The notes beneath the pieces were generated by a model. That model made no database searches, was not told where the DNA came from, and saw nothing but the letters and a program-made list of their open reading frames with translations. A DNA stretch of 64,000 nt from a virus (Duplodnaviria > Heunggongvirae > Uroviricota > Caudoviricetes), in IMG/VR virus record IMGVR_UViG_3300021254_000022, positions 4,857 to 68,856 of that record; one strand, 5' to 3'. Made by a program: the position numbers and the translations under genes. Numbering within the stretch: position 1 is the stretch's first letter; each line of letters begins with the position of its first letter. Shown one piece after another: positions 1 to 64,000 of this stretch.

Positions 1-262
1 GCAAATGTCGGTAGACAAGTATTAAAAGTCAGTAAGAAAATAGAGCTGGATTACGTTGGGACACCGAGGAGAGACACCTCACAGAGCAGGGGAAGATCCG
101 TAAGATACTCTGAAATCATCGTTGCAACCCAGCCCAGATGCGTGTGATTGAAACTGCACACCCGACATCCCCTTTCTGATGCGGAGCATATGGATCCGAG
201 GTGGTGGCAGACACGATAAACCTGCCACATTGAAGAAGGAAAACTTTGAAAAACCAAAATAA

Positions 263-322
263 AGACGAATTCTGCAAATTTAAAAGCATTTGACTGGTAA
301 TCAAAATTGGCTAAAATCGTCT
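263..322 (+). ncRNA. stem-closed leader element, variant A (AAATAAAG-AGACGA-attCTGCAAA ... TCGTCTT), immediately upstream of a tRNA
   Basis: 5' arm aagacga pairs with 3' arm tcgtctt around ~46 nt; near-identical start to the element at 15213. Confidence 0.3.
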
Positions 323-338
323 TGGGAAATAATATTAT

Positions 339-411
339 TGCGGGGTCGACAGGAAAGGCTCCTGCCCGTCCTCATAAGGCGTGTAATGTGGGTTCGAATC
401 CCATCCCCGCA
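339..411 (+). tRNA. tRNA with CAU anticodon (elongator Met or Ile2), U1-A72
   Basis: 7-bp acceptor tgcgggg/ccccgca; anticodon loop CUCAUAA; T-arm GTGGG-TTCGAAT-CCCAT. Confidence 0.55.
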
Positions 412-60307: not shown

Positions 60308-60356
60308 TAATTTTAATAAATTATGATATAATAAAAGAAAAAAGGAAATTATTATA

Positions 60357-63300
60357 ATGCGAAATTATTTTGGTATACATAATCATACAATGTATTCCAA
60401 CTTAAGATTACTTGACAGTATTAATAGACCTAAAGATTTAATTGATACAGCTATAAAGTTAGGATTAAGTGGAATTGCAATTACAGATCATGAAAGCCTT
60501 GGCGCGCATGTAGAAGTTAATAAGTATGCTGAAGAAGTTTATAAAGAGCATCCTGACTTTACAATCGCATTAGGTAATGAGATATATTTGATTGATGGTG
60601 AACGTGGTAATGATCAAAAGAAATATTACCACTTTATTTTGATTTCAAAAGATGCTATTGGACATAGAGCTTTAAGAGAACTTAGTTCTACTGCTTGGTT
60701 TTATGGATATGAAAGTCGTAGGCAGGAAAGAGTTCCAACTTTAAAGTCAGAACTAATAGATATTGTAGAACGATATAAAGGACATCTTATTGCAACAACA
60801 GCTTGTATTGGAGGAGAGCTTCCTTCATTACTTCTTCAAAAATGGAAAAGTCTTCCAAAAGAAGAGAATGATAATTTCATGAATTCTCTTTTGGCTGCCG
60901 ATGTTGAAGAATATAATAAAAAGATAAATAATTTCTTAGCTTTAATGTTAAGATTATTTGATGAAGATTTTTATATAGAATGTGCGCCAAGTGATAAACC
61001 AGATCAGATTCTTGCAAATCAGTTATTAAGAAAAGTAGCTGAAGAGTGGAATATTAAAATGGTTGTTGGAACAGATGCGCATTATTTAACTAAAGATCAA
61101 CGAGCAATTCATAAAGCATATTTGACTTCTAAAGAGGGTGAAAGAGAAGTTGATGAATTTTATGAGTTTGCAAGATTGATGGATAGTGATGAAGTAGAAC
61201 AACTTTTGAATTTAAGTTTTCAAAATAAATCATTTGTTCAAGAAATTCTTGATAATACATTAGAAATTCAGAGTAAAATAAAAAGATATAGTTTATTTCA
61301 TAAACAGGATATTCCTGAAGTTCCAGTCAAAAATTATGAGCCTTCTGCTTGGTGGGGAGTGAATAATGATTATGCAGACGATATGAAACATTCATATCCA
61401 ACTCTGTGTAAATTGTTTACTTCAGAAGATCCTCAAGATAGATATTGGGTAAATGAAAACTGGAATAAACTTGATGAAATGAACAAAGGATGGGTACATG
61501 CTTGTGAGACAGGAGATTATACCTATCTTGATAGATTGGAAGAGGAAGCAAGAGTCAAATCTATAATTAGTGAAAAGCTTGAAACAAATATGTTTCGTTA
61601 TCCTAATACTCTTCAGCATTATATTGATTTAATCTGGGAGTGCGGATCAATGGTTGGTGCGGGACGTGGTTCTTCATGTGCGGCATTAAATCATTATCTT
61701 ATGGGAATAACTCAGCTTGATCCGATTCAGTGGGATCTTCCATTCTTTAGATATTTGAATGAAGAGCGTGTTGAGCTAGGTGATATTGATATTGATATTT
61801 GTCCGTCAAAACGTCCATTAATTCTTCAGAAAATTAAAGAAGAAAGAGGACAATGGCTTGAGACAGATCAAGAATGGGCAAAAGAAAATCTTGGTTGTAC
61901 TTTGATAGCTACATATGGAACTGAAGGATCAAGAAGCGCAGTATTAACCGCTTGTCGAGGATATAGATCTGAAGATTTTCCAGAAGGAATTGATGTTGAT
62001 GATGCAAGATATATATCATCATTAATTCCAGAAGAAAGAGGATTTACCTGGTCAATAAAAGAAGTTTATTATGGTGATAAAGAAAAAGAGCGCCGGCCAG
62101 TTGCCGTTTTCGTTAAAGAAGTAGATAAGTATCCTGGACTTTTGGAGATTATGCTTGCGATTGAAGGTCTTGTAAATAAAAGAGGAAGTCATGCATCTGG
62201 AGTTATTTTGTTTAATGGTGATCCATTTGAACATAGTGCTTTTATGAAAACTCCGAATGGTGAAGTTATTACTCAATATGATTTGCATGATGCAGAATAT
62301 ATGGGATTAACTAAGTATGATTTTCTTGTAACTGAAGTTCAGGATAAGTTGGTTCAAGCGATTGAACTTATGCAGTATGATGGTGAGTTACCAAGTAATT
62401 TATCACTTAGAGAAATATATGATAAATATTTTCATCCGAATGTAATTCCGTTGGATGATGAAAAAATATGGGAAGCATTAAGTAATGTTTCAGTTATAAA
62501 TACATTTCAATTTGATAGTCCAGTTGGCGCGCAAGCGGCAAAAAAAATTCAGCCTCATACAGTTTTAGAGATGGCTGATGCGAATGGTTTGATGCGTTTG
62601 ATGGGCGAAGAAGGCGAAATGCGGCCACTTGATAAATATGTTCGTAATAAAAAGAATATAGATTTATGGTATAAGGAAATGGATAACTGGGGTTTAACGA
62701 AAGATGAACAGCGTTATCTTGAACCATATTTCCTAAAGTCATATGGTGTGCCGCCGAGCCAGGAACAGTTAATGACAATGCTTATGGATGAACACATATG
62801 TAATTTCTCATTGGGAGAAGCAAATGCGGCTCGTAAGATTGTTGGTAAGAAACAAATGAGTAAAATTCCAGAACTTCATCAAAAAGTTTTGGATAAGGCA
62901 TCAAGTAAAAGATTAGGTGAATATGTATGGAAATATGGGGCAGGACCTCAGATGGGATATTCATTTAGTATTATCCATGCATTAGCTTATTCATTTATTG
63001 GTGTTCAGACATTATATATAGCAACACATTGGAATCCAATTTATTGGAATACAGCTTGTCTTATTGTTAATAGTGGGGCAACAGATCCAGAGAATGGTGG
63101 GCAAACAGATTATTCTAAGATAGCAAAAGCTATGGGTGAAATTATTGAAGCAGGAATTAATATGAGTCTTGTTAATATTAATTCTTCTGACTATGGTTTC
63201 TTACCAGATGCAAAGAATAATAGAATATTATATGGAATGAAAGCAATGCTTAATATCAATGATGATTTGATTGAAGCAACAATAAAAAATCGTCCATATA

Positions 63301-64000
63301 GTTCACCTAAAGATTATTATCAGAGGGTTAAGCCGAAGAAACCAGCAATGATTTCTTTAATTAAAGGTGGCGCTTTTGATGATATGATGGATCGTAAAAT
63401 GTGTATGGCATGGTTCATTTATGAAACATGTGATAAGAAAAGTCGATTGACGTTACAAAATCTTCCGACTTTGATGAAAAGAAATATGTTGCCAGTTGAT
63501 ACAGAAGAAAGAAAGAATGCAAGAAGAATATATGAGTTTACTCGTTATTTGAAAGCAAAATGTAGAAAAACGGCAGCTGATGTAGAATATAATCTTGATG
63601 ATAGAGCAATGAACTTTTTGCAGGATATAGGATTTGAAAATTATGATGGTTATCATCTTAATGCAAAAGTTTGGGATAAATATTATCAAGGTTGGATGGA
63701 TGTTTTTAGAGAATGGATTAAAGCAGATTCAGATCAAATTCTTCAAACTCTAAATGATGAAATCTTTTTAGATGACTGGAAAAAATATGCAGATGGTAAT
63801 TTATCTCATTGGGAAATGGAAGCTTTGTGTTTCTATTACCATGAGCATGAGTTGGCACATCTGAATAAGGGTAAGTATGGAATTGTAGATTTTAAAGATC
63901 TTAAACCATATCCAGTAGTTGAAGAAGTATGGCATCGCGGCGGTAAGACTATAAACATCTTTAAATTGAATAAAATTTGTGGAACTTGTATTGCAAAAAA
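60357..64000 (+). CDS. dnaE: DNA polymerase III alpha subunit (PHP N-terminus), 3'-truncated by the window edge
   Basis: PHP motif GIHNHTMYS...AITDHE; frame open to the window end with no stop of any kind. Confidence 0.8.
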   Translation, partial: MRNYFGIHNHTMYSNLRLLDSINRPKDLIDTAIKLGLSGIAITDHESLGAHVEVNKYAEEVYKEHPDFTIALGNEIYLIDGERGNDQKKYYHFILISKDAIGHRALRELSSTAWFYGYESRRQERVPTLKSELIDIVERYKGHLIATTACIGGELPSLLLQKWKSLPKEENDNFMNSLLAADVEEYNKKINNFLALMLRLFDEDFYIECAPSDKPDQILANQLLRKVAEEWNIKMVVGTDAHYLTKDQRAIHKAYLTSKEGEREVDEFYEFARLMDSDEVEQLLNLSFQNKSFVQEILDNTLEIQSKIKRYSLFHKQDIPEVPVKNYEPSAWWGVNNDYADDMKHSYPTLCKLFTSEDPQDRYWVNENWNKLDEMNKGWVHACETGDYTYLDRLEEEARVKSIISEKLETNMFRYPNTLQHYIDLIWECGSMVGAGRGSSCAALNHYLMGITQLDPIQWDLPFFRYLNEERVELGDIDIDICPSKRPLILQKIKEERGQWLETDQEWAKENLGCTLIATYGTEGSRSAVLTACRGYRSEDFPEGIDVDDARYISSLIPEERGFTWSIKEVYYGDKEKERRPVAVFVKEVDKYPGLLEIMLAIEGLVNKRGSHASGVILFNGDPFEHSAFMKTPNGEVITQYDLHDAEYMGLTKYDFLVTEVQDKLVQAIELMQYDGELPSNLSLREIYDKYFHPNVIPLDDEKIWEALSNVSVINTFQFDSPVGAQAAKKIQPHTVLEMADANGLMRLMGEEGEMRPLDKYVRNKKNIDLWYKEMDNWGLTKDEQRYLEPYFLKSYGVPPSQEQLMTMLMDEHICNFSLGEANAARKIVGKKQMSKIPELHQKVLDKASSKRLGEYVWKYGAGPQMGYSFSIIHALAYSFIGVQTLYIATHWNPIYWNTACLIVNSGATDPENGGQTDYSKIAKAMGEIIEAGINMSLVNINSSDYGFLPDAKNNRILYGMKAMLNINDDLIEATIKNRPYSSPKDYYQRVKPKKPAMISLIKGGAFDDMMDRKMCMAWFIYETCDKKSRLTLQNLPTLMKRNMLPVDTEERKNARRIYEFTRYLKAKCRKTAADVEYNLDDRAMNFLQDIGFENYDGYHLNAKVWDKYYQGWMDVFREWIKADSDQILQTLNDEIFLDDWKKYADGNLSHWEMEALCFYYHEHELAHLNKGKYGIVDFKDLKPYPVVEEVWHRGGKTINIFKLNKICGTCIAK

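Follow-up and report, generated by a model that had tools for sequence, protein, structure and literature searches.

What does the triplet TAG mean in the genome of a virus whose genes seem to run straight through it? The question is raised by a 64,000-nucleotide (nt) stretch of viral DNA (Caudoviricetes; positions 4,857 to 68,856 of the record IMGVR_UViG_3300021254_000022), the whole of which is called the window here, and it has two parts: is TAG a stop or a sense codon in these genes, and if it is a sense codon, which amino acid does it specify and which transfer RNA (tRNA) reads it? TAG is a sense codon in the window, and the window encodes a tRNA with the matching CUA anticodon. The reading that we favour, at a probability of about 0.9, is that the window is part of an SPbeta-like phage of ~185 kb, probably infecting gut Clostridia, that uses genetic code 15, with TAG read as glutamine.

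The window has a G+C content of 34%, a purine-rich + strand and nearly all of its genes on that strand. Open reading frames (ORFs) were re-called with TAA and TGA as sole stops and each start was checked by its Shine-Dalgarno (SD) site, which left 17 robust genes containing 37 in-frame TAGs (Table 1) and no in-frame TAA or TGA. An earlier sequence-only reading of the window had proposed that at least 19 genes read through TAG; the number was slightly generous but the read-through itself stands, and the examples that it named (RecJ, Sak4, the radical SAM enzyme, PhoH, the lysin, here 908 amino acids (aa) long, and the GIY-YIG protein) all hold. Its statement that all clear stops are TAA or TGA is matched by the 65 complete ORFs obtained with TAG as sense, which end in TAA (39) or TGA (26), none requiring TAG as a terminator. 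Where a TAG closes a + strand ORF of at least 80 codons, the same frame is then open for a median of 124 codons, and for at least 80 further codons in 8 of 13 cases; past TAA or TGA the median by the same measure is 9 codons. Standard-code calling had been said to fragment these genes, and treating TAG as sense indeed raises the coding fraction from 0.72 to 0.85. Domains recognised by Pfam or NCBIfam continue across the TAGs rather than ending at them (DHH and RecJ_OB of RecJ, AAA_24, PhoH and Radical_SAM/TIGR04115, and further Glycos_transf_2, GIY-YIG, Amidase_2 and Phage_lysozyme2), and the parts downstream are in frame and homologous. Frame continuation, domain spanning and stop counts agree that TAG is sense throughout the window.

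The fragmentation of TAG-bearing genes by standard-code calling could also be taken to mean that the TAGs are real stops in pseudogenes or split genes, or errors of sequencing or assembly. The same genes that hold 37 in-frame TAGs hold no in-frame TAA or TGA, however, and a matching suppressor tRNA is encoded in the window. TAG also recurs at the same positions in independent assemblies (at GIY-YIG aa 258 in 42 loci and at RecJ aa 75 in 36), and an independent contig of 184,958 bp in the European Nucleotide Archive (ENA; ERZ28612963 scaffold_88) is identical to window positions 49669-64000, a run of 14,332 bases, TAGs included. The gene calls of that contig already read through TAG. Because TAG is kept at homologous positions across assemblies, we consider this explanation effectively refuted.

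The identity of the encoded residue was sought in relatives. With RecJ as query, a protein search gave 120 full-length homologues, of which 115 have glutamine (Q) at aa 75 and all 120 have it at aa 318. This tabulation is possibly circular in that database proteins may carry TAG already translated as Q; one locus (L001) does not translate to the query protein under table 11. We therefore repeated the tabulation at codon level, with DNA taken from ENA, Logan and IMG/VR for 261 related loci. RecJ aa 318 is then Q in 87 relatives, TAG in 5 and E in 1, and aa 75 is Q in 44 and TAG in 36 (n=93 for both). At PhoH aa 343, which is the DEAQN glutamine, the counts are Q 67, TAG 13 and E 1 (n=81); at aa 109 of the lysozyme-domain endolysin, Q 52 and TAG 2 (n=54); and at GIY-YIG aa 258, Q 55 and TAG 42 (n=101). 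Other columns are looser, with Q in 24 of 49 relatives at GIY-YIG aa 30, and Q 46, H 16, K 12 and TAG 8 at Sak4 aa 39. For the 22 columns in which 10 or more relatives align, a Codetta-like log-odds calculation gives Gln +18.3, followed by Lys at -28.5, Glu at -36.2, Asn at -43.4 and His at -46.9, with Ser, Leu and Tyr still lower; at conserved positions the relatives have glutamine where the window has TAG. Structures of independent origin point the same way: in PDB 3b85, a cellular PhoH homologue, the DEAQN glutamine lies at the position of aa 343, and in the glycosyltransferase structures 5hea and 3l7i a Q is paired with the TAG at aa 28 of the family 2 glycosyltransferase (GT2).

The test can be turned around by starting from the TAGs of the relatives. 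Their high-scoring segment pairs (HSPs) with the window cover 717,476 aligned codons, with 1308 in-frame TAGs, 28 TAAs and 8 TGAs. Opposite those TAGs the window shows TAG 66-fold and Gln 7.35-fold enriched over background, and no enrichment of Ser (0.74x), His (0.66x), Leu (0.27x) or Tyr (0.12x). The same TAG recoding runs through the whole phage family. One relative (L002) that had been a candidate for the standard code is recoded, since TAG occurs in frame 5 times and never as a stop; its CAA and CAG codons are unambiguous Gln. The base following TAG in relatives is G in 21% of cases vs 33% after CAA or CAG, with T not depleted, in sequences that are non-independent of one another.

TAG is used unevenly between genes. 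A replication core made up of GyrB, GyrA, RNase H, NAD ligase, DnaB, a superfamily 1 (SF1) helicase and DNA polymerase III (Pol III) alpha has 138 CAA or CAG codons and no TAG, compared with 9 TAGs and 57 CAA or CAG codons in the four cell-wall hydrolases (Fisher p = 2.6e-5); set against all other genes, the core differs at p = 8.5e-7. The other TAG bearers include RecJ, Sak4, GIY-YIG, PhoH, GT2 and the radical SAM maturase with its CXXX-repeat neighbour. In genes with TAG the median G+C at third codon positions (GC3) is lower than in the rest (0.158 vs 0.225, p = 0.005), and these genes are CAG-poor. The use of CAG vs CAA is bimodal among the window genes and tracks GC3 (Spearman 0.77), and TAG is nearly confined to the CAA-rich, low-GC3 genes. 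A strong outlier in composition is a DUF2828/DUF7788 gene (19036-20562) with 50% G+C against 34% for the window, GC3 0.58, 11 CAG and no CAA, and 60-78% identity across the whole phage family. In locus L401, which extends downstream of the window, the full-length Pol III alpha (1319 aa) has no TAG, and one TAG each is found (15292-19444) in NrdD, a formate/nitrite-transporter-like gene, an NrdG-like radical SAM gene and a small ORF.

Such unevenness bears on whether TAG might have a dual meaning, being read through in some genes and serving as a stop in others or at early times, by regulated suppression. Only ~26% of the window genes (17 of ~66) carry TAG, which makes up ~6.6% of glutamine codons, and one TAG (nt 35690) lies three codons ahead of a TAA, so that either reading gives nearly the same protein. 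TAG would in any case act as a stop until the tRNA accumulates (bioRxiv 10.1101/2021.08.26.457843), because the host presumably uses the standard code. Yet not one of the 65 ORFs depends on TAG for termination, TAG ends none of 44 called genes in two relatives, and HSPs to the relatives pass through the TAGs. The time-dependent version of this idea is compatible with TAG as a glutamine codon and is no true rival to it; taken as a whole, a dual meaning strikes us as unlikely.

The tRNA that could read these codons had been placed at 15314-15402 from the sequence alone. Both ARAGORN and Rfam (59.3 bits) find it there, and its minimum-free-energy fold is a clean cloverleaf with the canonical 7/5 acceptor/T arrangement. 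The acceptor end is of glutamine type (U1-A72, G2-C71, G3-C70 and discriminator G73), CCA is not encoded, and the D arm is class-I-like, with a 4-bp stem and a 7-nt loop, unlike those of the phage's own Ser and Leu tRNAs. In acceptor end and D arm it resembles the phage's own tRNA-Gln(UUG). These features are also those of E. coli tRNA-Gln; the characteristic set of bacterial tRNA-Gln consists of a weak 1:72 pair, G2-C71, G3-C70 and G73. Within the family, tRNA-Gln (CUG/UUG) genes have U:A or A:U at 1:72 together with G73, and in most CUA tRNAs the 1:72 pair is weak or mismatched (U:U, A:C or U:A), again with G73. The short variable loop of class I is not found in the CUA tRNA of the window: its variable region is 22 nt long and forms a hairpin with a 5-bp stem and the loop CUGAAGC.

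Several observations weigh against glutamine decoding of TAG by this tRNA. The TAG at lysin aa 450 falls on the histidine of WHAG, an amidase motif (14 of 14 relatives have His there, as does AmpDh2), and that at GT2 aa 13 pairs with the Asn of a YN motif in PDB alignments. A long variable arm is, to our knowledge, absent from every canonical tRNA-Gln, and in bacteria it is the main determinant for SerRS. No second CUA tRNA lies in the window, 7 kb upstream or 6 kb downstream, and no release factor 2 (RF2), glutaminyl-tRNA synthetase (GlnRS) or other synthetase was found over the same span by Pfam/NCBIfam scans (precomputed Pfam for the flanks); code-switch factors are thus not seen in the ~77 kb inspected, out of ~185 kb, which leaves room for a second suppressor tRNA elsewhere. 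Genes of DNA metabolism are among the TAG bearers, so the split between early and late genes is not clean.

Some of these points would suit a sense codon with another meaning (Ser, Leu, Tyr, His, Asn or pyrrolysine). The His and Asn columns are examples, and the long variable hairpin, G73, G2-C71 and C11-G24 of the CUA tRNA resemble the tRNA-Ser identity set of E. coli. ARAGORN labels the gene 'tRNA-Pyl', a label that follows from the anticodon alone. The log-odds and the residues opposite the relatives' TAGs speak for glutamine over each of the other residues they cover, several near-invariant Gln columns hold TAG, and the D arm sets the CUA tRNA apart from the phage's Ser and Leu tRNAs. As to pyrrolysine, the CUA tRNA is without the short variable loop of tRNA-Pyl, the TAG columns are Gln and not Lys-like, and Pfam/NCBIfam scans of the window proteins found no pyl genes. 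A meaning other than glutamine is therefore very improbable in our judgement. Under a single decoding rule glutamine is by far the best fit to the aligned columns despite the His and Asn exceptions, and the assignment of TAG to glutamine (translation table 15) is supported by them.

The unusual arm is not peculiar to the window. In the first 163 related loci all 47 tRNA-Gln (CUG/UUG) genes are 72-76 nt long. Among 40 CUA tRNAs in loci picked by a neighbouring gene alone, 9 are of the long-arm type, and each of these 9 forms a hairpin whose loop has a YUGAR core. Ordinary CUA tRNAs of 72-76 nt are used by other relatives, among which CUA tRNAs in general are common. A pattern scan of IMG/VR gave at least 76 ARAGORN-validated long-arm CUA tRNAs, with at least 60 unique sequences, among the 119 matches listed. 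Support for the variable stem comes from explicit compensatory variants (gcCt/gGgc, gcGt/gCgc, ccAt/gTgg, tatct/ggatg and tgcct/aggta); a control with shuffled flanks was uninformative, as these still pair because the 5' side is pyrimidine-rich and the 3' side purine-rich. RNAalifold did not recover the stem from a MAFFT alignment in which the arm was misaligned; folds of single sequences did. On contigs with a long-arm CUA tRNA, all 8 columns conserved at 80% or more that hold TAG are Gln. The presence of a CUA tRNA is uninformative about TAG density in single 20-kb loci, the region being TAG-poor.

The long-arm CUA class appears to be widespread in recoded gut phages. It is possible, and we offer this tentatively, that the tRNA represents an undescribed structural class in which a glutamine-type acceptor and a class-I D arm are combined with a type-II-like hairpin; a full-text literature search turned up no account of phage suppressor tRNAs with a long variable arm, which is weak evidence. 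The extra arm might direct the tRNA to one charging route or modification as a determinant, or be an anti-determinant against host enzymes or nucleases; alternatively, it might help the tRNA to beat release factor 1 (RF1) in Clostridia. Extra variable arms are also present in relatives' tRNA-Cys(GCA), Lys(UUU), Thr(UGU) and Ile(UAU), which are 84-94 nt long (for example L007 9425-9510, L077 9671-9757, L023 4312-4398, L054 5876-5960 and L019 206-299); such arms on normally class I tRNAs are therefore not confined to the suppressor in this phage family. Within the window, a tRNA-Ile(UAU) at 5705-5779 has acceptor positions 2-7 and an identical T arm (CTGGGTTCGAATCCCAG) in common with the CUA tRNA and differs from it at 1:72 and 73, a pattern that suggests duplication or recombination inside the tRNA array.

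How the recoding might operate can be sketched as follows. The CUA tRNA would be charged with glutamine, either by the host GlnRS or by a non-discriminating GluRS together with GatCAB, and would then out-compete host RF1 at UAG. The TAG-free replication core would be readable by the machinery of the uninfected host, as would a TAG-free sigma factor encoded just upstream of the window. Genes with TAG, among them the four cell-wall hydrolases, RecJ, Sak4, GIY-YIG, PhoH, GT2 and the radical SAM maturase together with its CXXX-repeat target, would not be translated to full length until the suppressor tRNA is there. Dependence on the suppressor could then delay these genes or keep them safely locked, as in the model of Borges et al.

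Table 1. Genes of the window with in-frame TAG, and the CUA suppressor tRNA (aa positions in brackets; counts are residues or TAG in relatives)
Feature	Coordinates (strand)	In-frame TAG, nt (aa)	Supporting details
Hypothetical gene, 195 aa	2409..2996 (+)	2493 (29)	AAGGAG SD at 2409; downstream alternative start with SD looked for, none found
Secreted SH3 + NlpC/P60 cell-wall hydrolase, 419 aa	4040..5299 (+)	4052, 4097, 4130 (5, 20, 31)	TAGs in signal peptide and start of first SH3 domain; AAGGAGG SD; Pfam SH3_3/NLPC_P60; 419-aa call in ENA contig
79-aa gene	7079..7318 (+)	7100 (8)	AAGGAG SD; aa 8: Q 10, E 6, D 1
Cys/Gly-rich CXXX-repeat protein, 583 aa	11722..13473 (+)	11740, 11779 (7, 20)	AAGGAGG SD
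Radical SAM peptide maturase, CXXX-repeat target family, 450 aa	13798..15150 (+)	14140 (115)	TIGR04115 431.8 bits (cutoff 350) over aa 39-408; Pfam Radical_SAM aa 46-215; aa 115: TAG 12, K 9, Q 1
Suppressor tRNA, anticodon CUA	15314..15402 (+) (ARAGORN end 15403)		ARAGORN, Rfam
Secreted SH3-domain protein, 214 aa	15423..16067 (+)	15486 (22)	TAG at signal peptide end; AAGGAG SD; Pfam SH3_3
Family 2 glycosyltransferase (GT2), 343 aa	16617..17648 (+)	16653, 16698 (13, 28)	Pfam Glycos_transf_2 aa 7-134
Multidomain lysin (glucosaminidase + Amidase_2 + SH3), 908 aa	20858..23584 (+)	21377, 22205, 22577, 22895 (174, 450, 574, 680)	Pfam Amidase_2 aa 399-537 covers aa 450
182-aa gene	30822..31370 (+)	30861 (14)	AAGGAG SD; aa 14: K 2, TAG 1
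Conserved hypothetical gene, 148 aa	35258..35704 (+)	35369, 35429, 35483, 35636, 35690	SD at start; homology across all five TAGs in ~60 relatives
Membrane-like gene, 84 aa	35765..36019 (+)	35849, 35948	AAGGAG SD
PIN + PhoH ATPase, 418 aa	36016..37272 (+)	37042 (343)	Pfam PhoH aa 219-411
Endolysin-like protein (Phage_lysozyme2 + ELLD + PG_binding_1 + SH3), 547 aa	37318..38961 (+)	37642 (109)	Pfam Phage_lysozyme2 aa 7-169
GIY-YIG nuclease-domain protein, 330 aa	46730..47722 (+)	46817, 46985, 47186, 47255, 47483, 47501	Pfam GIY-YIG aa 242-322 covers TAGs at aa 252 and 258
AAA_24 (Sak4-like) ATPase, 325 aa	50612..51589 (+)	50726 (39)	Pfam AAA_24 aa 22-193; TAG directly past Walker A
RecJ-like DHH exonuclease, 587 aa	55621..57384 (+)	55843, 56572, 57304 (75, 318, 562)	Pfam DHH aa 71-215, RecJ_OB aa 467-578
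220-aa gene	59026..59688 (+)	59476, 59581 (151, 186)	220-aa call in ENA contig; start corrected from 58972 to 59026 (ATGA overlap with helicase stop); aa 186 (aa 204 of longer ORF): Q 14, R 8, H 6

Some apparent TAG-bearing genes were set aside; beyond the 17, four or five candidates are of doubtful standing. In a Thg1-like ORF at 24814, a Band7 ORF at 31494 and an AAA_33 kinase ORF at 33878 the TAG lies upstream of the likely true start (25003, 31530 and probably 33944, respectively); these N-terminal TAGs are artefacts that arose because the first ATG was taken. Small ORFs at 1930, 6401 and 51586 are weak and doubtful as TAG-bearing genes. An ORF at 24072-24524, just past the big lysin and among the very few on the minus strand, has 151 codons, a hydrophobic N-terminus, one TAG, no ATG and no Pfam match; it was left uncounted and could be a holin-like gene.

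Other parts of the window deserve mention. The 583-aa CXXX-repeat protein, a 99-aa ORF and the radical SAM maturase follow one another at 11722-15150 and make up a predicted peptide-modification system carried by the phage, the target of which is unusually long. A set of genes resembling RNA or tRNA repair functions (5363-5704 and 25003-34987) adjoins the tRNA array: a cREC_REC protein (cyclic-phosphate processing receiver), a protein of the Thg1-like tRNA-His guanylyltransferase family, an HD phosphohydrolase, three metallophosphatases, an RNase T-like exonuclease, a DRB0094-type RNA ligase, the AAA_33 kinase and a nucleoside 2-deoxyribosyltransferase. A 109-aa ORF at 24675-25001 (+), skipped by longest-ORF calling, matches the T7 gp5.9 RecBCD-inhibitor family (PF25708, 39 bits). 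Past the tRNA-Gln gene, ~750 nt (10148-10896) contain no convincing ORF on either strand with TAG as sense and no Rfam match at the gathering threshold.

The ENA contig is also identical to window positions 1-13232 and diverges from 13233, inside the CXXX-repeat gene, whose length differs between the window and this near-identical contig. A search of GenBank phages gave no close DNA match, the best being at most 71% identity over short stretches, and neither terminase nor structural genes are found in the window. Gene products of the relatives match Pfam families of SPbeta type (YorF, YorH and YonG_N), and relatives have been binned with metagenome-assembled genomes (MAGs) of Clostridia, which is weak evidence on the host. 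ARAGORN finds 18 tRNAs in the window, and the array continues upstream (L398 1-6978) with 10 more, making ~28 in total. Counted apart from these, the same upstream region holds a phage tmRNA (tag ANYEYRMAA, with a TGA stop), and it also holds a sigma-70 family gene without TAG.

For the annotation of such phages the consequences are direct. Standard-code calling breaks about one quarter of the genes and loses ~13% of the coding sequence, including that of the lysins, RecJ, Sak4 and PhoH, and table 15 is required wherever members of this phage family are annotated or screened for function. To the known pattern the window adds a clear example from a large SPbeta-like phage whose hosts are probably Clostridia, in which core replication would be host-readable while hydrolases and accessory genes would depend on the suppressor. 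The long-arm glutamine-type suppressor tRNA offers a common substrate for studying charging and competition with RF1; if its proposed role is true, the extra arm would be a missing piece in the glutamine charging of a UAG-reading tRNA.

Comparison with familiar systems places the tRNA between two types. The E. coli suppressor supE is derived from tRNA-Gln, its CUA anticodon being one base from CUG, and inserts glutamine at UAG; it is of class I, has a variable loop of 4-5 nt and is a weak suppressor in a cell where TAG remains a stop. The window tRNA shares with it CUA and the glutamine-type acceptor (weak U1-A72, G2-C71, G3-C70 and G73) but has an extra hairpin of ~17 nt, and the phage no longer ends any gene with TAG. 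Bacterial tRNAs of class II (Ser, Leu and Tyr), like non-canonical long-arm tRNAs such as allo-tRNAs, have a base-paired variable arm of 3-6 bp, and the window tRNA likewise has a base-paired arm between its anticodon and T arms. It differs from class II in its class-I-like D arm, 7/5 acceptor/T arrangement, Gln-like acceptor and YUGAR loop core, and the 3-bp D stem with a large loop, the A73 of Leu and Tyr tRNAs and the decoding as Ser, Leu or Tyr are not found in it. With SPbeta-like phages of Firmicutes the phage has in common the YorF, YorH and YonG_N families and a replication module of Pol III alpha, DnaB, SF1 helicase and AAA_24; the large tRNA array and TAG recoding set it apart from them.

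The closest comparison is with gut phages that use code 15. Recoding of TAG to Gln and of TGA to Trp has been described across gut phage clades, the code-15 phages including the crAss-like, Lak and Jade, Sapphire, Agate, Garnet, Amethyst and Topaz clades, some of them with genomes of ~150-210 kb and Firmicutes hosts (Borges et al., bioRxiv 10.1101/2021.08.26.457843). In that survey suppressor tRNAs occur in ~40% of TAG-recoded genomes, structural and lysis genes are recoded and replication genes variably so, recoding is proposed to time lytic gene expression, and the charging mechanism of the suppressor tRNAs is listed as an open question (bioRxiv 10.1101/2021.08.26.457843). Peters et al. (PMC9523058) report validation of code 15 by proteomics. 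Gut phages that recode TAG to Gln and encode a suppressor tRNA are already well documented. The window resembles these phages in its in-frame TAG, read here as Gln, its phage-encoded CUA tRNA and the partial recoding of its genes, with lysis-type genes recoded and the replication machinery variably or not; the pattern of late structural recoding can be checked on the hydrolases only, because the window is without structural genes. The differences are that the window and its flanks are without RF2 or a synthetase, which are optional and reported in a minority of genomes, and that the long variable arm is unmentioned in the literature searched. The Sapphire clade, of ~200 kb, on Firmicutes and with in-frame stops in 26% of genes on average (bioRxiv 10.1101/2021.08.26.457843), is consistent with the 184,958 bp of the ENA contig, the 17 of ~66 window genes and the Clostridia MAGs of relatives, a likeness that is non-diagnostic. 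In every feature tested, the window fits the code-15 recoded phages.

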